From the sequence record PP400779: a stretch of DNA of 64,000 nt; one strand, given 5' to 3'. Origin of the DNA: Escherichia phage JM17. The number at the start of each line of letters is the position of its first letter. The stretch's first letter is position 1. A model generated the notes under the pieces. The model was given only the letters and a program-made list of their open reading frames with translations. It had not been told where the DNA came from and did no database searches. Shown piece after piece: positions 10,956 through 41,526 of the stretch. The position numbers were made by a program, and so were the translations under genes.

Positions 10956-13667
10956 ATGAAAGAATTTTACTTAACGGTTGAACAGATTGGTGATTCAATT
11001 TTTGAACGTTACATCGATTCTAATGGCCGTGAACGTACTCGTGAAGTAGAATATAAACCATCACTGTTTGCTCATTGTCCAGAAAGTCAGGCTACGAAAT
11101 ATTTCGATATCTACGGTAAGCCGTGTACTCGTAAGTTGTTCGCTAATATGCGTGATGCCTCCCAATGGATTAAACGCATGGAAGATATCGGACTTGAAGC
11201 ACTTGGCATGGACGATTTCAAATTGGCGTATTTGTCTGACACTTATAACTATGAAATCAAATACGACCATACAAAAATTCGTGTGGCTAACTTCGACATC
11301 GAAGTAACATCTCCGGATGGGTTCCCTGAGCCATCACAAGCAAAACATCCGATTGATGCTATCACCCATTATGACTCAATTGACGACAGGTTCTACGTAT
11401 TTGATCTATTGAATTCTCCATATGGTAATGTAGAAGAATGGTCTATTGAAATCGCTGCTAAGCTTCAAGAACAAGGCGGTGATGAAGTTCCATCTGAAAT
11501 TATCGATAAAATCATTTATATGCCGTTCGATAACGAAAAAGAATTGTTGATGGAATATCTCAACTTCTGGCAACAGAAAACTCCTGTCATTTTGACTGGA
11601 TGGAACGTTGAGTCATTCGATATTCCATATGTGTATAACCGAATCAAGAATATTTTTGGCGAATCTACTGCGAAACGTTTATCACCACATCGTAAAACTC
11701 GTGTTAAAGTTATCGAAAACATGTATGGTTCTCGTGAAATCATTACATTGTTCGGTATCTCTGTTCTTGATTACATTGACCTTTACAAAAAATTCTCTTT
11801 TACCAATCAACCGTCGTATTCTCTGGATTACATTTCAGAATTTGAATTGAACGTTGGTAAACTGAAATATGATGGCCCTATTTCTAAGCTTCGTGAAAGC
11901 AATCACCAACGATATATTTCTTATAACATTATCGACGTGTATCGTGTATTGCAAATTGATGCTAAGCGTCAGTTCATCAACTTGAGCTTGGACATGGGTT
12001 ATTATGCTAAGATACAGATTCAATCTGTGTTTAGCCCAATTAAAACATGGGATGCTATTATTTTTAATAGCCTTAAAGAGCAGAACAAGGTGATTCCACA
12101 AGGTCGTTCTCACCCGGTTCAACCTTATCCCGGCGCTTTTGTTAAGGAACCTATTCCAAATCGATACAAATATGTAATGAGTTTCGACCTTACATCTCTG
12201 TATCCAAGTATTATTCGCCAAGTGAATATTAGCCCGGAAACAATAGCAGGAACGTTTAAAGTAGCTCCATTGCATGATTATATTAACGCAATCGCTGAAC
12301 GTCCTTCAGATGTGTACAGTTGCTCTCCTAACGGCATGATGTATTATAAAGACCGTGATGGTGTAGTTCCAACTGAAATCACTAAGGTCTTTAATCAACG
12401 TAAAGAACATAAAGGTTACATGCTTGCAGCTCAACGTAATGGTGAAATAATTAAAGAGGCATTGCATAATCCTAATCTTTCTGTTGACGAACCATTAGAT
12501 GTTGATTATCGTTTCGACTTCAGTGATGAGATTAAAGAAAAGATTAAAAAGTTGTCTGCTAAATCTCTTAATGAAATGTTGTTTAGAGCTCAACGTACTG
12601 AAGTTGCAGGTATGACCGCACAAATTAACCGTAAATTGCTCATCAACTCACTTTATGGTGCACTTGGAAACGTTTGGTTCCGTTATTATGATTTGCGTAA
12701 TGCTACTGCAATCACAACATTCGGGCAAATGGCTTTACAGTGGATTGAACGTAAAGTTAATGAATATCTGAATGAAGTTTGTGGTACAGAAGGTGAAGCT
12801 TTCGTTCTTTATGGTGATACGGACTCTATTTACGTATCTGCTGATAAAATTATCGATAAGGTTGGTGAATCTAAATTCCGTGATACTAACCATTGGGTAG
12901 ACTTCTTAGATAAGTTTGCACGTGAACGTATGGAACCTGCTATTGATAGAGGTTTCCGTGAAATGTGCGAATACATGAACAATAAACAACACTTAATGTT
13001 CATGGACCGAGAAGCTATCGCTGGGCCTCCGCTTGGTTCTAAAGGTATTGGCGGATTTTGGACTGGTAAGAAACGTTATGCATTAAACGTGTGGGATATG
13101 GAAGGTACTCGTTACGCTGAGCCTAAACTCAAAATCATGGGTCTAGAAACTCAGAAATCTTCGACCCCTAAAGCAGTACAGAAAGCTCTTAAAGAATGTA
13201 TTCGTCGTATGCTTCAAGAAGGTGAAGAATCATTACAAGAATATTTTAAAGAGTTTGAAAAAGAATTCCGTCAATTGAATTATATTAGCATCGCGTCGGT
13301 ATCTTCTGCGAATAACATTGCTAAATATGACGTCGGTGGATTCCCTGGTCCTAAATGCCCGTTCCATATTCGTGGAATTCTGACATATAACCGAGCTATC
13401 AAAGGTAATATCGATGCACCACAAGTTGTAGAAGGTGAAAAAGTATATGTTCTGCCTTTACGTGAAGGAAACCCATTCGGTGATAAATGTATCGCATGGC
13501 CTTCTGGTACTGAAATCACAGATTTAATTAAAGACGATGTACTTCATTGGATGGACTACACTGTTCTCCTTGAGAAGACATTTATTAAACCACTTGAAGG
13601 ATTCACATCAGCAGCGAAACTCGATTATGAGAAGAAAGCATCTCTGTTCGATATGTTCGATTTTTGA
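10956..13667 (+). CDS. 43: DNA polymerase gp43 (family B), RB69-type
   Basis: 903 aa; N-terminus MKEFYLTVEQIGDSIFERYIDSNGRERTREVEYKPSLFAHCPESQ and exo/pol motifs (FDIE, YGDTDS) match remembered RB69 gp43. Confidence 0.97.
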   Translation: MKEFYLTVEQIGDSIFERYIDSNGRERTREVEYKPSLFAHCPESQATKYFDIYGKPCTRKLFANMRDASQWIKRMEDIGLEALGMDDFKLAYLSDTYNYEIKYDHTKIRVANFDIEVTSPDGFPEPSQAKHPIDAITHYDSIDDRFYVFDLLNSPYGNVEEWSIEIAAKLQEQGGDEVPSEIIDKIIYMPFDNEKELLMEYLNFWQQKTPVILTGWNVESFDIPYVYNRIKNIFGESTAKRLSPHRKTRVKVIENMYGSREIITLFGISVLDYIDLYKKFSFTNQPSYSLDYISEFELNVGKLKYDGPISKLRESNHQRYISYNIIDVYRVLQIDAKRQFINLSLDMGYYAKIQIQSVFSPIKTWDAIIFNSLKEQNKVIPQGRSHPVQPYPGAFVKEPIPNRYKYVMSFDLTSLYPSIIRQVNISPETIAGTFKVAPLHDYINAIAERPSDVYSCSPNGMMYYKDRDGVVPTEITKVFNQRKEHKGYMLAAQRNGEIIKEALHNPNLSVDEPLDVDYRFDFSDEIKEKIKKLSAKSLNEMLFRAQRTEVAGMTAQINRKLLINSLYGALGNVWFRYYDLRNATAITTFGQMALQWIERKVNEYLNEVCGTEGEAFVLYGDTDSIYVSADKIIDKVGESKFRDTNHWVDFLDKFARERMEPAIDRGFREMCEYMNNKQHLMFMDREAIAGPPLGSKGIGGFWTGKKRYALNVWDMEGTRYAEPKLKIMGLETQKSSTPKAVQKALKECIRRMLQEGEESLQEYFKEFEKEFRQLNYISIASVSSANNIAKYDVGGFPGPKCPFHIRGILTYNRAIKGNIDAPQVVEGEKVYVLPLREGNPFGDKCIAWPSGTEITDLIKDDVLHWMDYTVLLEKTFIKPLEGFTSAAKLDYEKKASLFDMFDF

Positions 13668-13707
13668 TATAATGTCATGGACGGTAAACTAATTAAATGA
13701 GAGAAAT

Positions 13708-14343
13708 ATGAAAACTACTCCTATTACTATCGCTATTGACGCAATCATAAAACAAGCTTCTTCTTTGGCCGCTATGGCCAAAGTAATTAGTCAAAACCCT
13801 GCTCGTTATAATGCTATTCTAGAAACTCTTCGACGCCCTGGACTTAGTAATTATGAAAGCCGGGTAATTATTACAGGTGTTGGTAAGAATGCTAATATCG
13901 CAACTAAAGCTTCCGAGACATTTGCTTCACTAGGTATTCCTAGCATGTATTTGAACACTGGGCATTATTCTCACGGTGATGCAGGATTCATTGCGCCTAA
14001 TGATGTGTTGATTCATATTAGTCGTTCTGGTAAGACTGAAGAAATGATAGGTGTTGCTAAACATCTTCGTATGATTCGTCCTCAGGTTAAACAGATTCTG
14101 TTACATTGTAACCCAGACATTCCACAAGAATACGAAGCTCTTTTTGATTATACGTTCTGTACTGGCATCGCGGTAGAGGTTGATGAGAATTCTCTGGCTC
14201 CGACTATGTCCACTACATTGTTGTTAGCGCTTATCGATACGTTTGCTATCAACCTTTCGTCTGAACGTGGATTTACCTCTAATGATTTCCTTAAGTTCCA
14301 TCCAGGCGGTGCACTAGGTGCCATGTTACGAGGCGAACAATGA
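13708..14343 (+). CDS. SIS-domain sugar-phosphate isomerase (KdsD/GutQ-like; candidate D-arabinose-5-phosphate isomerase)
   Basis: 211 aa; VIITGVGKN...SLGIPSMYLN...HGD...HISRSGKTEE...FLKFHPGGALGAMLRG parallels KdsD SIS core; no CBS domains. Confidence 0.75.
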   Translation: MKTTPITIAIDAIIKQASSLAAMAKVISQNPARYNAILETLRRPGLSNYESRVIITGVGKNANIATKASETFASLGIPSMYLNTGHYSHGDAGFIAPNDVLIHISRSGKTEEMIGVAKHLRMIRPQVKQILLHCNPDIPQEYEALFDYTFCTGIAVEVDENSLAPTMSTTLLLALIDTFAINLSSERGFTSNDFLKFHPGGALGAMLRGEQ

Positions 14344-14483
14344 AAGCAATAACAATAGGACTTTTACTATTGATGCTTGTCATGACTATCTACTGGAGCT
14401 TAACGGCTCCGGTAATGATTCCAACACTTGTAATTGGATGGATTATGATTGGACTACAAGCAAAGTATGAATGCTTTAACTAG
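14340..14483 (+). CDS. small hydrophobic protein (47 aa, two predicted TM segments)
   Basis: ATG overlaps upstream stop (ATGA); below ORF-track cutoff; lies where T4 has imm. Confidence 0.3.
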   Translation: MKAITIGLLLLMLVMTIYWSLTAPVMIPTLVIGWIMIGLQAKYECFN

Positions 14484-14524
14484 AATAGTGTACAATACTC
14501 CTACTTACCAATGAGGACTTTAAC

Positions 14525-16210
14525 ATGAAAAAAGCTGTTATTCTTGGTGCTGGACTGGCAACTCGTTTGTATCCAATAACGCATCATATTCCTAAGGTGC
14601 TTGTTAACTATAAACAAGATACTATTCTGAGCAATTTGTATACAATTTATTCTGACCTTGGCGCAGATGAAATTATTGTAGTAGTTCATTCAAAATTTGC
14701 TGAAACTGTTCGAGCTTATTGTGAACAAGAAGGGTTCAATGTGACTATTCGTACAGTTGATGAAGCGTATGGTTCTGCTTATGCTCTTGCTAAATTACAC
14801 AAAGATTTAGACGGCCATAATGTAATTGTTAACTGGTGTGATATTATTCCTGATTTTGGTTCATGGTCTTGGAATGTTAACGCAATCTATGTTAAGGGTG
14901 ACGAATGTCGATATAATTTCGACGGTGAAAATATCACTAACGTAGGTTCAACAGGTGGTAATGTTGTAGGAATTTATCAGTTCAAAGACTGGGAATTCTA
15001 TATGGGTTCTACTGATGAGGAAATTCATGAATACTGCAAAGGACGTGATTTCGTAGAATTCCTTTACGGCAGCGCATTCAATAAATCAGAGCTTATGAAT
15101 CTAATTGATTTAGGTGATATGCCTAAACTTGAAAAAGCTCATGAAGTTCGTGAACTTAATCGTAGTTTTAATGCAGTTGAAATTGGTGAAGAAACTGTAA
15201 CTAAATTCGCATTAACCGAACAGGGTCGAGCTCTTCAGAAAGATGAGATTTCGTGGTATCTTAAAGTGAAATCAGATTCAGTTCCTCAGTTAGTTTCTGT
15301 TAATGAAAATAACTTTGAAATGGAACGCATTAAAGGTAAGCCTGCATTTGAATATATTAAATCCAAATCAAGTCTTGCTCGTCCACAAATTGTTGATGCA
15401 ATTTTAGATGCACTGAAATTCAGCACAGACACTTATTTTGTAAGTCCTGAAACTGTTCGTCGTGATTTCACTAAAGAATTCTATACGAAAGTTATTGATC
15501 GTTGTGAAAGCATTCAACCATTGATTGATTCATTTGGTAAAATCACACATGTGAACTACACTAAGATTGGACGTCTGAAGCCAATGCTGAAACAAGCTTT
15601 AGAACACCTCATTCGTTATCATAACCGTTCTCAGGGACAGTACTCTGTTATTCACGGTGACCCGAACTTCAGTAATACTATGATTACTGATAATGGCGAA
15701 GTCAAGTTTATCGACCCTCGTGGATATTTTGGTGAAACCAAGATTTACGGGCCAAAATTGTACGATGAAGCTAAAGTGCTTTACGCTGTTTCAGGTTATG
15801 ATGAATTCAATGCTAATCCGACTTGGGGACAGTTTACTATTGATGAAACAACTTGTAATGTGACTATTAACATCAATCCATTAGTTTACAAATATGGAAA
15901 GATGAGTTCGTTTAACGAGTATCATCATTTGGCAGTGGCAATTATCTGGATTGCATTAGGTGGTTATTTCAAGAATAATCCACTTAAAGCGGTAGCCGCA
16001 TATTATAAAGGTATGGAACTTCTGACTAAGCAATTACGTAACATGGGCCGTGTACTTCAGGACGGCTCTATTAGTTATGACGTAGCAGAACCTGTAACGG
16101 CTACTCTGATTACAAAAAATCCTGGTAAATGGGTACTAACTGATAAAGAAACTGGTGTTTCCTATCGTCCAATCGGTGGCGATATCACTCATCAATGGGA
16201 ACGAATTTGA
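14525..16210 (+). CDS. bifunctional sugar-1-phosphate nucleotidyltransferase / APH-fold sugar kinase
   Basis: 561 aa; N-term AVILGAGLATRLYPIT...PKVLV (NTP-transferase G-loop); C-term VIHGDPNFSN...FIDPRG (Brenner HGDxxxxN and DxxG kinase motifs). Confidence 0.7.
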   Translation: MKKAVILGAGLATRLYPITHHIPKVLVNYKQDTILSNLYTIYSDLGADEIIVVVHSKFAETVRAYCEQEGFNVTIRTVDEAYGSAYALAKLHKDLDGHNVIVNWCDIIPDFGSWSWNVNAIYVKGDECRYNFDGENITNVGSTGGNVVGIYQFKDWEFYMGSTDEEIHEYCKGRDFVEFLYGSAFNKSELMNLIDLGDMPKLEKAHEVRELNRSFNAVEIGEETVTKFALTEQGRALQKDEISWYLKVKSDSVPQLVSVNENNFEMERIKGKPAFEYIKSKSSLARPQIVDAILDALKFSTDTYFVSPETVRRDFTKEFYTKVIDRCESIQPLIDSFGKITHVNYTKIGRLKPMLKQALEHLIRYHNRSQGQYSVIHGDPNFSNTMITDNGEVKFIDPRGYFGETKIYGPKLYDEAKVLYAVSGYDEFNANPTWGQFTIDETTCNVTININPLVYKYGKMSSFNEYHHLAVAIIWIALGGYFKNNPLKAVAAYYKGMELLTKQLRNMGRVLQDGSISYDVAEPVTATLITKNPGKWVLTDKETGVSYRPIGGDITHQWERI

Positions 16211-16956
16211 TACATTATCTCTACAAAACTACTAATCTTATAAACGGTAAAGTTTATTTAGGAATGCACTCGGCTGAAGAAGCCGAGCCTTTAGATTTAT
16301 ATAAAGGTTCTGGTAAATTATATAAAAAGGCTGAAAGGAAATATGGGAAGGAAAATTTTCTTAAAGAAATCATTTCCTACCATAGCTCAAGAGAAGAATT
16401 AAAAATAGCTGAAAAGGCTCTAATAACATTAGACATAGTTAAAGACCCAAATTATTACAATCTTAAAACTGGTGGCGAAGGTGGTTCTGACGGGTTATCC
16501 CAAAGGTCCAAGGATAAAATTTCTAAGGCAAATAAAGGACGTTTAGTTGGTGATAAAAACCCAAGATGGGGTAAAACTTTGTCAGCTGAATCTATAGCTA
16601 GGGGTAAAGAAAAGCACAGGAGGTATGGTAAACCTGCATTACATGGTCTAAAGATTAATGTAGATGGCAAATATTATGAATCCTGTCGGGAAGCGGCTAA
16701 AGATTTAGGTATATCTTCTGCCACGATTCAAAAGAGAGTAAAATCGCCTAAATATCTTAATTATCGGTATCAGGACGAAAGCAAAAATGCTCACAAGTCT
16801 CAAAAATTTGTTAAAATAAACGAAAATTACTATGAATCTCTTAGGATAGCTGAAAAGAAAACGGGTATTCCTAGAAAGCGTATAGCTGATAATATTAAAA
16901 ATTCTATTGAAGGATATTGCTATGAAACCATTACATCTTTGCGTGGACGTCGATGA
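16195..16956 (+). CDS. GIY-YIG homing endonuclease (freestanding, seg-like)
   Basis: 253 aa; HYLYKTTNLINGKVYLGMH = GIY-YIG module; AT-rich codons; overlaps both flanking genes. Confidence 0.7.
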   Translation: MGTNLIHYLYKTTNLINGKVYLGMHSAEEAEPLDLYKGSGKLYKKAERKYGKENFLKEIISYHSSREELKIAEKALITLDIVKDPNYYNLKTGGEGGSDGLSQRSKDKISKANKGRLVGDKNPRWGKTLSAESIARGKEKHRRYGKPALHGLKINVDGKYYESCREAAKDLGISSATIQKRVKSPKYLNYRYQDESKNAHKSQKFVKINENYYESLRIAEKKTGIPRKRIADNIKNSIEGYCYETITSLRGRR

Positions 16957-17296
16957 TTGTATAACAGAGTGGAATAACAATCGTGATTACGTGAACTTCA
17001 AACCAGACGTCGAAATGGTGTCTGCCATTAATGCCCTGTATGATGCAGGGCATACAATAACGCTTTACACTGCTCGAGGTATGAAGTCAGTAGGTCCTGG
17101 TCGTATAGCAATTGACATTCTCCCAAGTCTGATTCAGAACTTGGCAAACATTGGCTTGAAGTACCATAATTTGCTAACACATAAACCAGTATATGATTGG
17201 ATTATCGACGACAAAGCTATGCGTCCTGACGAATTCAAAGCTCTTATGAATAAAGGCGAATTCGAAACATTTAAATCATATAAACCGAATCTATAA
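16922..17296 (+). CDS. HAD-like phosphatase (candidate sugar-phosphate phosphatase)
   Basis: 124 aa from ATG 16922; N-terminal hhhhDxDx motif-like LCVDVDDCIT; small size typical of capless HAD. Confidence 0.45.
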   Translation: MKPLHLCVDVDDCITEWNNNRDYVNFKPDVEMVSAINALYDAGHTITLYTARGMKSVGPGRIAIDILPSLIQNLANIGLKYHNLLTHKPVYDWIIDDKAMRPDEFKALMNKGEFETFKSYKPNL

Positions 17297-17353
17297 TAAT
17301 TTAAGTAAGACCTGCAAAAACCATCGCATCAATTAACGTGAGATGCAAAAAAA

Positions 17354-18514
17354 ATGAATACTTTTAAAATTGGAACGAATTTTGATTTAGCTCTTCTTGA
17401 TAAAATCGTAGAGCTCAATAAAACTTATCCTAATAGCTTGATAAACGAAGTATACGGCTCTACAAGAGAAATGGCTTTTGTAGCAGCCAGACCTGATTTT
17501 AGGCTTCCTGACGTTGACAAAAAGATGTTAGAAGATTACGTTAAACGTTGTAACGAATTAGGTATTTGCTTTAACTATACACTCAACACGATAAATCCTG
17601 GTTCAAAAAGAGAACTAGTTGAGTGGAAGAAGAAAGCTATTCAGGATTATGTTCAGTATCTTTGGTCAATAGGCGTATGGCGTATTACTATCGCTAACCC
17701 TGTTGTTATGGAAATTGTTCGTGAAGTCAATAAAGACATTGAGATTGAAGTTTCAACAATTCTACATGTCGATGCTGTAACTCAAATCAAATACTTGCAT
17801 GACCAGTATAATATCAAAAAGGTCTGCTGTGGAATTCATAAGAACCGTTCAGTTTCTTTCCTGAAGCGTGCAGCAGAGTTTTGCAATAAGAACAATATAA
17901 TATTTGAAGTTCTTGTAAATGAGTTCTGTTCTAATGCCGGTAAAGGGTATACAACACATTGTAGCTATCGTGACTCTTGCTATATTTTCCATAGTACTGA
18001 TGTTACAGCTGATGATGCTAAATCCTTAAACGGATATCCTATGCAGCACTGTATTAAAGCTCGTGATACAGACCCATTTAACTGGTTGAGAACTCGTTTT
18101 GTTCGTCCTCAAGATTTGAAACTTTATAATGATATTGGTATCACTCAATTCAAAGTTTCAGGACGTACAGGTAGCACAGACTACATTTTGAAAGTTCTTG
18201 AAGCATACGCTTCTGAAAAGTTTGAAGGTAATTTGTTAGAACTGTGGAAGCCTTTAGAGACTATTTTCACTCTTGAAAATGAGACCGAGTTTTCACATAC
18301 GGTAAATATTGAAACCTCTTTGTTAGATGGCTTTTTAGAAAAAAGGTGGTTCAGACATCCAGATTTCGATTGTGCTAATGAGATCTGCGGGACGACGTGT
18401 ACATATTGTGAAAGATATTATAAACGTCAGTTATCTAAAAATGGGTTAGCAGAAAACTCTATATCTATTATTGATATAACTAACTCTGATGACGCTTTGA
18501 GGTACCCGGAATGA
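17354..18514 (+). CDS. peptidase-U32-family-like protein (PrtC/RlhA/UbiU-like fold), function unknown
   Basis: 386 aa; IGTNFD...VYGS...CFNYTLNT...IEIEVSTILHV...FEVLVNEFCSNAGKGYTTHCSYRDSCYIFHS resembles U32 core incl. Cys cluster; extra CxxxCxxxCxxC near C-terminus. Confidence 0.45.
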   Translation: MNTFKIGTNFDLALLDKIVELNKTYPNSLINEVYGSTREMAFVAARPDFRLPDVDKKMLEDYVKRCNELGICFNYTLNTINPGSKRELVEWKKKAIQDYVQYLWSIGVWRITIANPVVMEIVREVNKDIEIEVSTILHVDAVTQIKYLHDQYNIKKVCCGIHKNRSVSFLKRAAEFCNKNNIIFEVLVNEFCSNAGKGYTTHCSYRDSCYIFHSTDVTADDAKSLNGYPMQHCIKARDTDPFNWLRTRFVRPQDLKLYNDIGITQFKVSGRTGSTDYILKVLEAYASEKFEGNLLELWKPLETIFTLENETEFSHTVNIETSLLDGFLEKRWFRHPDFDCANEICGTTCTYCERYYKRQLSKNGLAENSISIIDITNSDDALRYPE

Positions 18515-18750
18515 TTTCTAGAAAAACTTTTAATCACCAACTTAATGAAGAGATTTTGACTACGAAACTGAACACTAACGAACAAATTCTTAAAAAGGCC
18601 CTTATGGGCCTGTTTGAAACCAAAGCGGCTAAAGTGATTAAAGGACCTGTTCAATTAGAATATTACGCTGATACATTTCTTCATAGTGTTCTTGGAAGTA
18701 TCGATGCTGAAGCTTTACGTTATATCAACATTGCCAAGAAATTCAAATAA
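18511..18750 (+). CDS. hypothetical protein (79 aa)
   Basis: ORF overlapping upstream stop; contains internal hairpin aggccc-ttat-gggcct (18597-18612). Confidence 0.3.
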   Translation: MISRKTFNHQLNEEILTTKLNTNEQILKKALMGLFETKAAKVIKGPVQLEYYADTFLHSVLGSIDAEALRYINIAKKFK

Positions 18751-18792
18751 GCTTTACGAATTGAGTATATAATAAATTGTATTGAGGTAAAC

Positions 18793-19509
18793 ATGGGAAA
18801 ACATAACACAATGAAATATATCAAAGCCGCAGATTTTCAAACCGCATTTAAAGCAGTCAATCGTGAAATTTTAGAAAACCCGGAATTCGTAACTGATTCT
18901 CGTATTGGACGTTGTAATGAAATTGGGTCTATGACAGTAGTTGTTGACACTCCATCATCATTCAAAATGACTGACCCACGTATTAACCGCATCTCTTATG
19001 AATATGCCGAAGACTTCTGGAAGTTTATGATTTCTGGTGGTACCAACGCAGAAGAAGCGTTTAAGGCATATCCTAATGTCGCTAAATTTATTTCTAAACC
19101 AAAATCAGATGTTTTGCCGGCGAACTTCAATACTTTCTATGGTCCTCGCATTGCGGCCCAATTACCAGCTCTTCTAAAAGAACTTAAAGAGAAGCCTAAC
19201 TCTCGAAGAGTTGTGTTCCAAATTCTAGAAAGTTCTGATCAGGCTTTGCTTGATTCGGATGAAACGCTTGAATATCCATGTACTGACTCAGTGACTTATT
19301 ATATTCGTGATGGTAAGCTTTATACCCACTGTCATATGCGTTCTCAGAACTGTGCTGTTGTTATGCAGTTGGATTTTTATCTCCAAGGAAAATTACTTCA
19401 TTATATCGCTAACGAATGCGGTGTAGAAGTTGGTGATTATACTCATACCATGGTAAGTGCCCATGTGTTTGAACGTGATTTTGATTATGTTAAAGGATTC
19501 CTTGACTAA
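18793..19509 (+). CDS. 42: dCMP hydroxymethylase gp42 (thymidylate-synthase fold)
   Basis: 238 aa; TS-family core (NSRRVVFQI, PCTDSVTYYIRDGKLY..MRSQN....LD...GV.VGDY) with Asp at the base-specificity position; synteny 43..42..uvsX. Confidence 0.75.
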   Translation: MGKHNTMKYIKAADFQTAFKAVNREILENPEFVTDSRIGRCNEIGSMTVVVDTPSSFKMTDPRINRISYEYAEDFWKFMISGGTNAEEAFKAYPNVAKFISKPKSDVLPANFNTFYGPRIAAQLPALLKELKEKPNSRRVVFQILESSDQALLDSDETLEYPCTDSVTYYIRDGKLYTHCHMRSQNCAVVMQLDFYLQGKLLHYIANECGVEVGDYTHTMVSAHVFERDFDYVKGFLD

Positions 19510-20408
19510 TGGCTATTTTCCGCGTACCAATCTTGAGTATGCGGTCTTATGAAACTGGACAGTATGCTATCCTTAAGGATGGCAACTTCCAACTTCATTT
19601 GCACCGTGCTAATCCGGGTGATGTGATTACATATCCACGTAATGCATCTGATATTAAAGAATGCGAACGTCTTTTCCCAGAATTTAAGTTTGTTCCATTA
19701 TGGTATAAAGATAACGCTTATAACACTCGTAAATATTTCTGGTCTGAAAATGAATTTGTGGTTGATTCATTAATTGCTTATTATGATTGCGATTTTCTAA
19801 TCACAGATATAACTGGATATGACGGCGCTTTTGATGTAGAATTCAATTTCAATATCACTGCAGACCCTAATAAACCACGTTTTTATATTGACGAATTCTT
19901 AAAAACCGACATGTTGTCGGTTAATCGTTCAATCCAAACAACTGTGTTGAATGAACGTCAAAAAGAAGTGCTGGTTAACGCAGGTGCAGATGGTAATAAG
20001 ATTATCGTAACGCAGAAAGTTATACGTCCTTCCATCATGCAGCGTCTTGTAGGTGATTTGGCTCCTATTTATCTAGATGGTATTTTTCATCCATTTCGAA
20101 TTAGTGACCCGTGCTATCGTTTTGAACAAGTGGTTGAATGTGCAATTCAATTAGGTCAACCGCTTTATATAACCGATCCAAATAATAGCTTTGACAGAAA
20201 TAAGTATCCTGAAGAAGCGTTGATTCGAATTTTTAAACCAACTAAAACTGAGTACTATCAAATTCTTAAAGGACGTCCGAAGATTCAATATTTCGAAAAT
20301 CCTGAAGAAGTATTTCATCCAGGTCTTGGTGAGTTCATCTACTTTAATGCTTTAATTTCTTCACCGTATAATATACCTAAATATGAAGATGTCGTAATCG
20401 AGGAATAA
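19509..20408 (+). CDS. hypothetical protein in the T4 beta-gt slot (candidate DNA-modification transferase)
   Basis: 299 aa; start overlaps gene 42 stop (TAATG); not recognisable as T4 beta-glucosyltransferase. Confidence 0.4.
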   Translation: MAIFRVPILSMRSYETGQYAILKDGNFQLHLHRANPGDVITYPRNASDIKECERLFPEFKFVPLWYKDNAYNTRKYFWSENEFVVDSLIAYYDCDFLITDITGYDGAFDVEFNFNITADPNKPRFYIDEFLKTDMLSVNRSIQTTVLNERQKEVLVNAGADGNKIIVTQKVIRPSIMQRLVGDLAPIYLDGIFHPFRISDPCYRFEQVVECAIQLGQPLYITDPNNSFDRNKYPEEALIRIFKPTKTEYYQILKGRPKIQYFENPEEVFHPGLGEFIYFNALISSPYNIPKYEDVVIEE

Positions 20409-20409
20409 A

Positions 20410-20958
20410 ATGGCTAAAATTATTTTAGTAGATGGCCCGGATAATGCTGGTAAAACAACTTTCATTAATGACATAATGGAAATTAGTGAAAGATATGTAA
20501 AAATTGATTTCCCTAAACGAACAGTTGATGGACGTTTCGATGTTAAGTCTCGAAATGAAGTTGGCTGTTTTGAAACGATGTTGAATTATTTAGACCCTAC
20601 TAAGATTTATCTGTTAGACCGTGGATATATTAGTAACTGGGTTTACGGACGTATTCGACAAGATGCGGACTCGGTTCTTGACGTTTATGAACAGGATTAT
20701 ATTCGTCTTTGCCAAAACCATGATGTGTTCACAATTATTTTAACACGTAACGAAATGACTGAAAGTTTTGAAGATGACCTTATTACTTTGTCTTCATTAG
20801 GTTTTAATACAGTCATTTCACATTTTGAAGAGTTTGCAATTCATAACAAAATCCAAACGTATCAATTACTTAATCATGATGGTGCTAACAAAGTTATAGG
20901 ATTTAATGCAAGCGAACGTAATGATTTGATTACAGAAATCATCAAATGGGCTCGTTAA
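20410..20958 (+). CDS. P-loop kinase, thymidylate-kinase-like
   Basis: 182 aa; Walker A VDGPDNAGKTT and DRGYISNWVYG (DR-Y/F motif of dNMP kinases). Confidence 0.55.
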   Translation: MAKIILVDGPDNAGKTTFINDIMEISERYVKIDFPKRTVDGRFDVKSRNEVGCFETMLNYLDPTKIYLLDRGYISNWVYGRIRQDADSVLDVYEQDYIRLCQNHDVFTIILTRNEMTESFEDDLITLSSLGFNTVISHFEEFAIHNKIQTYQLLNHDGANKVIGFNASERNDLITEIIKWAR

Positions 20959-20978
20959 GAGCCATTTAAAGTTTTAAA

Positions 20979-21003
20979 TGCTGTATAACCCTTAGTATAT
21001 AAT
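20979..21003 (+). promoter_or_regulatory. middle-type promoter candidate upstream of uvsX
   Basis: tgctgta (MotA-box-like, one mismatch), 12-nt spacer, tataat 20998-21003. Confidence 0.3.
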
Positions 21004-21056
21004 CATTTTATCTTTTAAACATGAGTAAAATATAATGATGCCTATGGAAAAATACA

Positions 21057-22229
21057 ATGTCTGATTTAAAATCTCGTCTGATTAAAGCTTCTACTTCTAA
21101 AATGACTGCAGACTTGACTAAGTCTAAGCTGTTTAATAATCGTGATGAAGTCCCTACTCGTATTCCGATGTTGAATATTGCACTAGGTGGTGCTCTGAAT
21201 GCAGGATTGCAATCAGGCTTGACTATTTTTGCTGCACCTTCTAAACATTTTAAAACATTGTTTGGACTAACTATGGTCGCAGCGTATATGAAGAAATATA
21301 AAGATGCAATCTGTTTGTTTTATGACTCAGAATTCGGTGCTTCAGAATCTTACTTCCGTTCGATGGGTGTTGATTTAGACCGTGTAGTTCATACTCCGAT
21401 TCAATCTGTCGAACAACTTAAAGTCGATATGACTAATCAGCTTGACGCTATTGAACGCGGTGATAAAGTTATTATCTTTATCGATTCAATCGGTAATACT
21501 GCATCTAAGAAAGAAACCGAAGATGCATTGAACGAGAAAGTTGTAGGTGATATGTCTCGTGCTAAGGCACTTAAATCTCTTTTCCGTATTGTGACTCCTT
21601 ATCTGACTATTAAAGATATTCCATGTGTTGCAATCAACCATACCGCAATGGAAATTGGCGGATTGTACCCTAAAGAGATTATGGGCGGCGGTACAGGTAT
21701 TCTTTATTCTGCTAACACTGTATTCTTTATCTCTAAACGTCAGGTTAAAGAAGGTACAGAATTGACCGGTTATGACTTCACGTTGAAAGCAGAAAAATCT
21801 CGCACAGTTAAAGAGAAATCTACTTTCCCGATCACGGTTAATTTTGATGGCGGTATTGACCCATTCAGTGGCTTGTTAGAAATGGCAACTGAAATTGGTT
21901 TTGTAGTTAAGCCTAAAGCCGGTTGGTATGCTCGCGAATTCCTTGACGAAGAAACAGGTGAAATGATTCGTGAAGAAAAATCATGGCGTGCTAAAGCTAC
22001 TGATTGTGTAGAATTCTGGGGGCCGTTGTTTAAACATAAGCCTTTCCGAGATGCAATTGAAACTAAATATAAACTAGGTGCTATCTCTTCTATTAAAGAA
22101 GTTGATGACGCTGTTAACGACCTTATTAATTGCAAAGCAACAACTAAAGTTCCGGTTAAAACTTCTGATGCTCCGTCTGCAGCAGATATAGAAAACGACC
22201 TTGACGAAATGGAAGATTTCGATGAATAA
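21057..22229 (+). CDS. uvsX: recombinase UvsX (RecA-like)
   Basis: 390 aa; MSDLKSRLIKASTSKMTADL..., Walker A GPSKHFKT; close to remembered T4 UvsX. Confidence 0.9.
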   Translation: MSDLKSRLIKASTSKMTADLTKSKLFNNRDEVPTRIPMLNIALGGALNAGLQSGLTIFAAPSKHFKTLFGLTMVAAYMKKYKDAICLFYDSEFGASESYFRSMGVDLDRVVHTPIQSVEQLKVDMTNQLDAIERGDKVIIFIDSIGNTASKKETEDALNEKVVGDMSRAKALKSLFRIVTPYLTIKDIPCVAINHTAMEIGGLYPKEIMGGGTGILYSANTVFFISKRQVKEGTELTGYDFTLKAEKSRTVKEKSTFPITVNFDGGIDPFSGLLEMATEIGFVVKPKAGWYAREFLDEETGEMIREEKSWRAKATDCVEFWGPLFKHKPFRDAIETKYKLGAISSIKEVDDAVNDLINCKATTKVPVKTSDAPSAADIENDLDEMEDFDE

Positions 22230-22563
22230 TCTCGATGATTTAAATCTAGAAATCGTTGATGAATCCCCTTCTTCGGAAGGGGAAGACATTCGCAAAGAAC
22301 GAGTGTTTAATGAATCTCTTAAAATTATCCGTTCAGCAATGGAAAATGTCATTCAAGAGATTCTGATTACACTTGAAGACGGTTCCCATCATATAGTCTA
22401 TATTACAAAACTAGACTGGGTTGATGGTAAAATCGTAATGGACTTTGCAGTTCTTGACCAGGACAGAAAAGCAGAACTTGCACCACATGTTGAAAAATGT
22501 GTTACAATGCAAGTACAACAAGCTTTTAATGAACGAACCAAGAAAAAATTTAAATTCTTTTAA
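22222..22563 (+). CDS. 40: gp40-like protein (head vertex assembly, by position)
   Basis: 113 aa from ATG 22222; lies between uvsX and 41 as T4 gene 40. Confidence 0.5.
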   Translation: MNNLDDLNLEIVDESPSSEGEDIRKERVFNESLKIIRSAMENVIQEILITLEDGSHHIVYITKLDWVDGKIVMDFAVLDQDRKAELAPHVEKCVTMQVQQAFNERTKKKFKFF

Positions 22564-24851: not shown

Positions 24852-25036
24852 GCAAATTAACTAAAGTTACTTTTATCGGTTGGTTTAAAAGCGGTGAGAT
24901 GTTCACTAAAGATATCATGTTATCAGGTGATCGCGAAGAAATCGAGTGGGTTACGGTACAACTTGCTGAAGTGAACAACGCATTAGTTAAAGCATTTGTT
25001 AATGACGAGAAAGTTTTCGAAGCAGATTTTCGATAA
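24848..25036 (+). CDS. hypothetical protein (62 aa)
   Basis: ATG 24848 with gaggaaat RBS, overlapping upstream stop. Confidence 0.35.
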   Translation: MSKLTKVTFIGWFKSGEMFTKDIMLSGDREEIEWVTVQLAEVNNALVKAFVNDEKVFEADFR

Positions 25037-40425: not shown

Positions 40426-41526
40426 ATGAAAGTTATGTTTATCCCATCTCGCGCAGTCCCATTTAACCCAGAACGTGTACAAGGTGGTCTTGAAGCAGTA
40501 CATTTAAATGTGTTGAAATATCTTGTGTCCATCGGTGCTGATATTGATTATATCGGCTTTGATAATGACACGTTTGGTGACTGGAAGGTTAATCATCATC
40601 CTGTTGGTCATCTGACTAAATTCAGTCTAGGTATGAGTTATACTATGGCTCGTAAGATTGTTGAACTAGCCGGCATTAATGAGTACGATTTCGTTGTTAC
40701 AATGGAACCGACCAAACTAACCGTTCAGGCAATTAAAGACGCAGGTCTCTCTAAAGTTCATAAGAATTTTATGGCAACACCATTTGAACCAGTATCTCGT
40801 GGCATTGTTCAAATTTGGGACCAGACTATTCAAATTCGTAAGAATGGTGGTAAGAGTTATGCTCCTACTAAAGCCTTCCGTGAATTTGAACGCAAATATT
40901 GTTATATGACTTCAGGTCTGACTGACAAAATTGATTATGATTATTGGCGAGCAAATCCGTTGTTTGAAGCCGAAGATTATCCGGTTATTTGTTTGAATGA
41001 GAAACCTGAAGTTCTTCCGGCGACGGATCTGATTATTAGTGCACAACGTTATGACACTAAAATGCGTCGTACTGATGTTGCTCTTGAAGCGATTAAAGCA
41101 CTAGGCGAAAATGGTGTAGGATACTGTCCTAGTAAATGGGCACCACCGGCTAAGTATCCTGTTATTATTGATGCTCCACACAGTGAAATCATGGAACGTC
41201 TTAAAACAGCTAAAGCACTTATCAATACGTGTCCTGACACGGGTACGGTAGAGAATAGTTCTATTGAAGCCATCTCTAAAGGTGTCCCTGTGATTCAGTT
41301 AGTTTTTAAGGATTATCCGCACGCGACATTCGAATATGACCCAGATACTGTGCGTGTAGAAATTGATTCCTCTACTCCTAAGAAAGAAGTAGTTGCGCTT
41401 TACACAAAAGCTGTATTAGAATTCACTGACACATACGAAGCTCGAGTTAAACGTGCTGAAGCAGTATGGAAGAAGTATAATCGAGATGCAGTTGTTGCGA
41501 TGTGGGATAAAATCTTCACAGCGTAA
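40426..41526 (+). CDS. GT-B-like glycosyltransferase (candidate hmC-DNA glycosyl/arabinosyl-transferase)
   Basis: 366 aa; C-terminal TGTVENSSIEAISKGVPVI resembles GT4 ExnE donor-binding motif; location between 39 and rIIA. Confidence 0.5.
   Translation: MKVMFIPSRAVPFNPERVQGGLEAVHLNVLKYLVSIGADIDYIGFDNDTFGDWKVNHHPVGHLTKFSLGMSYTMARKIVELAGINEYDFVVTMEPTKLTVQAIKDAGLSKVHKNFMATPFEPVSRGIVQIWDQTIQIRKNGGKSYAPTKAFREFERKYCYMTSGLTDKIDYDYWRANPLFEAEDYPVICLNEKPEVLPATDLIISAQRYDTKMRRTDVALEAIKALGENGVGYCPSKWAPPAKYPVIIDAPHSEIMERLKTAKALINTCPDTGTVENSSIEAISKGVPVIQLVFKDYPHATFEYDPDTVRVEIDSSTPKKEVVALYTKAVLEFTDTYEARVKRAEAVWKKYNRDAVVAMWDKIFTA

Follow-up and report, generated by a model that had tools for sequence, protein, structure and literature searches.

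A predicted glycosyltransferase and a thymidylate-kinase-like kinase in the 5-hydroxycytosine arabinosylation module of Escherichia phage JM17

We analysed a 64,000-nucleotide stretch of Escherichia phage JM17 DNA (PP400779; hereafter the window) and focused on two adjacent genes that occupy the place of beta-gt in phage T4 and encode a 299-amino-acid (aa) protein and a 182-aa P-loop kinase. The reading we favour, with a probability of about 0.6, is that the two genes encode the transferase and nucleotide kinase of a published module through which arabinosylated 5-hydroxycytosine takes the place of cytosine in RB69-type phage DNA, with the 299-aa protein adding the first arabinose and the 182-aa protein phosphorylating a 5-substituted deoxycytidine monophosphate (dCMP). 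Work published between 2018 and 2026 had already described this locus and predicted what both genes do. New here are the co-travel of a synthase–transferase–kinase cassette in most related loci and the natural fusion of its enzymes, transferase and kinase in both orders and kinase with isomerase.

The three genes of the cassette are joined by tight junctions. At the first (GACTAATGGC), the synthase stop TAA and the ATG of the 299-aa open reading frame (ORF) overlap in a single shared A at 19509 (TAATG), and at the second (GAGGAATAAAATGG) a GAGGA Shine-Dalgarno sequence just 5′ of the 299-aa stop is followed by a 1-nucleotide gap and the kinase ATG. Co-expression and translational coupling of the synthase, transferase and kinase genes are probable. 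An earlier note on this DNA had placed the 299-aa ORF between the gene 42 position and uvsX with a TAATG overlap, and both the ORF list and the junctions agree. A promoter and terminator scan of 13500–22400, which leaves out T4 middle and late promoters and thus leaves operon boundaries undefined, found no excess of sites over shuffled sequence, and no site separates the three genes. The two ORFs are genuine genes rather than chance frames: full-length homologues occur in 340 of the 350 matching phage records, and long lists of residues are invariant across the homologous protein clusters, of which the 299-aa protein has 138 and the kinase 27.

Megablast of positions 16900–21060 returned 227 phage records, more than 150 of them at 95–99% identity, and the best matches were all Mosigvirus (RB69-like) coliphages including NRG-P0074, FL18, phiC120 and phiE142; by this similarity, the window is that of an RB69-like Mosigvirus. 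The 238-aa synthase ORF is 99.2% identical to RB69 gp48, the 299-aa ORF is 98.3% identical to RB69 gp47 over residues 1–181 and 99.1% identical to gp46 over residues 184–299, and the 182-aa ORF is 98.4% identical to gp45. Over 2.17 kilobases (kb), the window and RB69 differ by a single indel: at window position 20052 the RB69 record (NC_004928 near 24947–24949) has one T more, and the gene for the transferase is thereby broken into ORF047c and ORF046c. In the treatment of Lee et al., the two are one ORF interrupted by a sequencing error (PMC13326640). An intact transferase ORF of about 299 aa is present in the window and in 340 other phage records. Full-length similarity and a position directly 3′ of the synthase gene place the protein in the phrog_3891, RB69 gp46:47-type family, which occurs in 350 records of the phage collection and in the sampled listing is almost always named 'hypothetical protein'.

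The chemistry of the module comes from previous work on RB69 and related phages. Thomas et al. (2018; PMC6024577) reported arabinose in RB69 DNA and, between the polymerase gene and uvsX, a module of eight genes that lack T4 counterparts; T4 carries beta-gt and segA there, between its gene 42 and uvsX. Lee et al. (Nucleic Acids Research 2026; PMC13326640) identified the RB69-type base as 5-hydroxycytosine carrying one or two arabinofuranoses directly via the ring oxygen, demonstrated in vivo and with 18O2 that gp48 is a flavin- and O2-dependent synthase of 5-hydroxy-dCMP from dCMP, and found that the bridging 5-oxygen is kept in the product. In the same study, the T4-gp1-type kinase gp159 of RB69 phosphorylated 5-hydroxy-dCMP in vitro, 5-hydroxy-deoxycytidine (5-hydroxy-dC) entered DNA when the synthase and gp159 alone were expressed, and DLP3 gp76 and gp77 were second and third arabinosyltransferases that act on DNA (PMC13326640). 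The activated sugar, uridine diphosphate (UDP)-D-arabinofuranose, is made from ribulose-5-phosphate by the upstream cluster, as reported for HY126, through an isomerase, a bifunctional kinase/uridylyltransferase and a HAD phosphatase (summarised in PMC13326640). Proteins of the 299-aa type are labelled 'arabinosyltransferase 1' and those of the 182-aa type 'nucleotide kinase' by Lee et al., who give the kinase no further discussion (PMC13326640).

The synthase of the window is near-identical to PDB entries 9iqc, 9ir2 and 9iqu (E 8e-161), which are named only 'Thymidylate synthase', and matches Pfam Thymidylat_synt. The earlier note had taken it for gene 42 and hydroxymethylcytosine synthesis; with its near-identity to RB69 gp48, a 5-hydroxy-dCMP synthase, only its place matches T4 gene 42. 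The DNA-modification role that had been suggested for the two downstream genes stands in outline, as a predicted transferase and a nucleotide kinase, with 5-hydroxycytosine arabinosylation in place of hydroxymethylcytosine chemistry.

The only family match of the 299-aa protein is phrog_3891 ('unknown function'; E 1e-155), and its family shares 34 invariant residues across the 138 homologous clusters. Structure prediction, proposed earlier as a check for a transferase fold, gave an AlphaFold2 model with a predicted local distance difference test (pLDDT) score of 94.5 (42-sequence alignment), in which two Rossmann-like domains separated by a cleft point to a glycosyltransferase B (GT-B) fold; Foldseek comparison of this model with viral models returned the two RB69 halves first, followed by GT1-family transferases. 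Invariant motifs FxPFRxSD (193–200), TDPN (222–225) and HPG (270–272), candidates for donor binding, lie in the model where β–α units of the C-terminal domain begin. Because sequence-family searches were null, the fold assignment comes entirely from structure prediction. The Pfam profile of GT4-like GT-B enzymes (Glycos_transf_1) gave no match, and neither did the 366-aa GT4-like transferase of the window when the two profiles were aligned with hhalign (probability 0.3%). According to the model, the beta-gt slot holds a different GT-B enzyme of GT4-like kind without sequence similarity to beta-gt; the claim that the protein is unrelated to beta-gt is thus right for sequence and gives way at the level of the predicted superfold, which is common to the T4 enzymes. 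We infer that the 299-aa protein is a predicted arabinosyltransferase 1.

The 182-aa protein begins MAKIILVDGPDNAGKTT and contains the Walker A motif VDGPDNAGKTT and the sequence LLDRGYISN. Motifs and fold both support its description in the earlier note as a P-loop protein with VDGPDNAGKTT and DR(G)Y that resembles deoxythymidine monophosphate (dTMP) kinases. Its PHROG match is phrog_761 'thymidylate kinase' (E 4e-45), and its model (pLDDT 87.3) has a predicted nucleoside monophosphate (NMP) kinase fold nearest to dTMP kinases. Residues G9-P-D11-N-A-G14-K15-T16-T, F34-P35-K36-R and D70-R71-G-Y show little or no variation in the family, in line with the thymidylate kinase (TMPK) signature, an invariant Arg113 opens a LID-like loop, and HMMER aligned the P-loop and FPK(R) motifs to vaccinia and yeast TMPK. 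PF02223 was not reported for the protein at E ≤ 1, and a membership comparison with T4 gp1 detected no structural or sequence similarity.

Scanning IMG/VR by back-translation, we recovered 59 loci; the synthase–transferase–kinase order is retained in about 40 of them, among which are contigs at 33–38% identity that show no T4-like flanking genes. The transferase lies directly 3′ of the synthase in RB69, in Thanatos and in most of the 59 loci. An iterated profile located the kinase in 52 of the 59, with three of the seven kinase-less loci stopping at a contig edge, and the kinase gene has been relocated within the cluster, to a place after the HAD phosphatase, in several lineages of Enterobacteria phages. 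Shewanella phage Thanatos encodes the trio TH1_062, TH1_063 and TH1_064, with 49% identity for the transferase and 44% for the kinase.

Natural fusions join the same enzymes. IMG/VR locus L058 (3851–5668) encodes a single protein in which a TMPK-like domain comes after a transferase domain, and this order recurs in 17 clusters at 90% identity (342–574 aa, the two shortest fragment-like); the kinase precedes the transferase in one cluster (P0172) and an SIS/arabinose-5-phosphate isomerase in another (P0192). Three more clusters of 519–572 aa span 97–100% of the fused query, with the kinase part under thresholds, and locus L050 (3443–5104) holds HAD-like and transferase domains in one stop-to-stop frame. 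The full set entered under module-enzyme fusions comprises L058, L050, L064 7001–8257 and proteins P0150–P0167, P0172 and P0192. No mention of such fusions was found in the literature examined. These fusions establish the kinase as integral to the pathway but leave the order of reactions unfixed, since it has more than one fusion partner. Within the fused kinases, the Walker A motif reads GFDR[IV]GKD[ST] and TRLF[VL]SD replaces DRGYISN. The Asp after Lys in this Walker A motif is unusual, at a position normally held by Ser or Thr, and the Arg in its P-loop is that of type-I TMPKs.

In the mechanism we propose, the thymidylate-synthase homologue converts dCMP into 5-hydroxy-dCMP with flavin and O2 and the upstream cluster converts ribulose-5-phosphate into UDP-D-arabinofuranose, two steps shown by others. 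The 299-aa protein, a compact putative GT-B enzyme, would transfer arabinofuranose from UDP-arabinose to the 5-hydroxyl of 5-hydroxycytosine as the base-proximal, alpha-linked sugar, and the 366-aa enzyme would then attach the second arabinose. The 182-aa TMPK-type enzyme would use ATP to phosphorylate the module's 5-substituted dCMP to the diphosphate. Its likeliest substrate would be 5-hydroxy-dCMP, which would make it the module's own NMP kinase; we favour this substrate because a mobile cassette needs such a kinase, as T4 needs gp1 for hydroxymethyl-dCMP. A kinase of its own would let the synthase–transferase–kinase cassette function in any phage background; in a T4-like phage, this kinase would duplicate in part the gp1-type deoxynucleoside monophosphate (dNMP) kinase.

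Several results weigh against this assignment. The 299-aa protein has no Pfam or NCBIfam match and, by profile search, no PDB-sequence family match; the kinase scores 16.3 bits on TIGR00041, below the cut-off of 83.25; and a second kinase for 5-hydroxy-dCMP looks redundant beside a gp1-type kinase active on it. In the literature covered, with He et al. 2026 and Mahler et al. 2025 outside that coverage, we found neither substrate assays of the 182-aa kinase nor a demonstration of transferase activity for the 299-aa family, a point that those two papers may settle or contradict. DLP3 transferases taken one at a time gave no arabinosylation of 5-hydroxycytosine DNA (PMC13326640), and in the Thanatos paper TH1_063 formed UDP-xylose from uridine triphosphate and xylose-1-phosphate in vitro and glycosylated none of DNA, dCMP, deoxycytidine triphosphate and cytosine. 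The negative transfer result for TH1_063 is expected, because those acceptors had no 5-hydroxyl, and the UDP-xylose result suggests that the 299-aa family binds a UDP-pentose.

The alternative that survives best, which we consider unlikely, is a pre-replicative first arabinosylation: free 5-hydroxy-dCMP would be the acceptor of the 299-aa transferase, the 182-aa protein would be a dedicated arabinosyl-5-hydroxy-dCMP kinase that a gp1-type enzyme cannot replace, and the polymerase would incorporate the sugar-bearing triphosphate. Lee et al.'s own experiments do not distinguish a first arabinosylation on the mononucleotide from one on DNA, and the inactivity of single transferases on 5-hydroxycytosine DNA is consistent with this order of events (PMC13326640), which would also leave a non-redundant job for a second kinase, with gp159 already serving 5-hydroxy-dCMP. 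Tight stop/start coupling and the occurrence of transferase–kinase fusions in both orders in independent lineages point in the same direction; however, kinase–isomerase and HAD–transferase fusions exist too, so fusions may mean adjacency and not consecutive steps. With a pI of 5.06 and a median net charge of −10.5 across its family, the transferase is acidic, and the 366-aa second transferase is near neutral, although net charge is weak evidence that cannot decide the substrate of a transferase. Glycosylation of the T4 type is post-replicative, the later DLP3 arabinosyltransferases gp76 and gp77 work on DNA, and unglycosylated 5-hydroxy-dC is incorporated with only the synthase and gp159 expressed, all of which argues against a sugar-bearing precursor. 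To our knowledge, pre-replicative glycosylation would be a first for phage DNA, where glycosylation is regarded as post-replicative.

Appreciably less probable is a historical accident of a plastic region, in which the 182-aa protein next to the transferase would be a plain dTMP kinase or one that acts on a sugar or a DNA base. The database annotation 'thymidylate kinase', the dTMP kinases as nearest folds, the known plasticity of the pol–uvsX region (PMC6024577) and the position of the gene elsewhere in the cluster in some phages are compatible with such an accident, but homologues are found solely in module-carrying phages, the gene remains in the cluster even when moved and has fused with enzymes of the module, a dTMP-competent gp1 kinase is already at hand in T4-like phages, and the protein falls below dTMP-kinase model thresholds. 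The sugar-kinase and DNA-base-kinase versions were set aside as leading explanations: TMPK motifs are conserved, the AfhE-type bifunctional protein already supplies a sugar kinase, and with the bridging 5-oxygen kept in the product a phosphorylated base hydroxyl is unneeded as a leaving group. Very improbable, finally, is that the 299-aa protein is no transferase and instead forms UDP-pentose, as a pyrophosphorylase or reverse-acting glycosyltransferase that supplies or salvages activated sugar: the TH1_063 assays speak for it, but the predicted fold is GT-B and not that of a nucleotidyltransferase, the cluster's 561-aa protein already has a nucleotidyltransferase domain, the Thanatos acceptors could not be expected to accept a sugar, and TH1_063 is the only GT-fold candidate of Thanatos, whose DNA is mono-arabinosylated (PMC13326640).

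Table 1. Module genes and neighbouring features in the window, with the basis of each assignment
Feature	Position	Strand	Basis
Arabinose-5-phosphate isomerase, RB69 gp55 orthologue	13708..14343	+	NCBIfam KpsF/GutQ E 5e-32; so annotated in NRG-P0074 and RB69
561-aa bifunctional sugar-1-phosphate nucleotidyltransferase and kinase, RB69 gp52:53 / AfhE-like, makes UDP-arabinose	14525..16210	+	NCBIfam nucleotidyltransferase matches at N-terminus; RB69 synteny; function from summary in PMC13326640
HAD-type phosphatase, RB69 gp51 / AfhF-like	16907..17296	+	phrog_1238; NCBIfam capsule biosynthesis phosphatase E 2e-13; NRG-P0074 annotation; role summarised in PMC13326640
U32-family protein, RB69 gp50 orthologue, conserved module member	17354..18514	+	Pfam Peptidase_U32 E 7e-11; phrog_5757
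79-aa conserved ORF, RB69 gp49 position	18511..18750	+	phrog_8601 (unknown function) E 3e-49; RB69 synteny
238-aa thymidylate-synthase homologue, 5-hydroxy-dCMP synthase, RB69 gp48 orthologue ('gene 42' of the earlier note)	18793..19509	+	
299-aa predicted GT-B fold protein, RB69 gp47 + gp46, predicted 'arabinosyltransferase 1' (base-proximal arabinose)	19509..20408	+	
182-aa thymidylate-kinase-like P-loop nucleotide kinase, RB69 gp45	20410..20958	+	
uvsX	21057-22229	+	ORF list
366-aa second arabinosyltransferase, RB69 gp3 orthologue, outside the cluster, rIIA-type region	40426..41526	+	

Among the neighbouring genes (Table 1), the HAD phosphatase starts at TTG 16907 in the mechanical ORF and at about 16922, by position, in the NRG-P0074 annotation. 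The U32-family protein, labelled a 'sugar or heterocycle reductase' by Lee et al. (PMC13326640), is found in most related loci and, at 79% identity to Thanatos TH1_065, is far better conserved than the kinase and transferase beside it (44–49%). Even the most distant loci with the module have it (L062 36927–38060; L064 10573–11706 and 15020–15257), and in L064, a 91-kb metagenomic contig, a DAHP-synthase/chorismate-mutase protein is encoded a few genes 3′ of the U32-like gene. The U32 proteins TrhP, RlhA and UbiU/V are prephenate-dependent, O2-independent hydroxylases. By analogy, this suggests that the U32-family protein may provide an anaerobic route to 5-hydroxycytosine. The 79-aa ORF overlaps the stop of the U32-like gene just 5′ of the synthase and is present in several, not all, related phages and loci.

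Outside the cluster, the 366-aa protein has no NCBIfam match and is near-identical to PDB entries 9iqz and 9ir0, 'phage HY126 glycosyltransferase' (E 8.5e-248); the 605-aa and 737-aa ORFs that flank its gene are, by length only, presumed to be gene 39 and rIIA. Between the UDP-arabinose bifunctional gene and the HAD phosphatase gene, and overlapping both, lies a 253-aa GIY-YIG/NUMOD homing endonuclease ORF (16195–16956). Among the 30 best relatives listed, the megablast match begins at query base 1 in three (NRG-P0074, a20 and BEU50) and at base 32 in the rest; most relatives probably lack the insertion. In several related phages, uvsX appears as two pieces about 0.8–1 kb apart (L016 6241–8816; L025 4950–7277; L027 5469–8112), which suggests a mobile element, for example a homing endonuclease or intron, inside uvsX of those phages.

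Arabinosylated 5-hydroxycytosine allows common T4-like phages, therapy candidates included, to evade restriction enzymes and CRISPR and exposes them to modification-dependent defences. The transferase and kinase genes are the least characterised steps of this pathway. Their recurrent cassette and the transferase–kinase fusions point to a self-contained, transferable module and give concrete, testable grounds for asking if glycosylation can start at the nucleotide level.

Compared with known systems, the 299-aa protein differs in no material way from RB69 gp46:47, DLP3 gp79 and Thanatos TH1_063 (phrog_3891), its ORF being intact here and split in the RB69 record, and the 182-aa protein shows no difference from the 'nucleotide kinase' of RB69 (gp45), DLP3 (gp78) and RL38J1 (gp214). 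With the T4 glucosyltransferases beta-gt (GT63) and alpha-gt (GT72), the 299-aa protein shares no detectable sequence similarity; its model predicts their GT-B superfold, but the likeness is not close, with beta-gt absent from the top 60 structural matches. It is also shorter (299 versus about 350–400 aa; PMC6024577), and its predicted sugar is arabinofuranose and its predicted acceptor 5-hydroxycytosine. The 182-aa family resembles thymidylate kinase (PF02223/TIGR00041) in fold, in a P-loop with a conserved Asp, in FPxR and DR[YH]-type motifs and in a LID-like loop with Arg113, and differs in being shorter, under the curated thresholds, confined to arabinosyl-hydroxycytosine modules and sometimes fused to transferase or isomerase. 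Its closest counterpart in pathway role is the dNMP kinase gp1, which phosphorylates modified dCMP in T4 and whose RB69 orthologue gp159 does the same for 5-hydroxy-dCMP.

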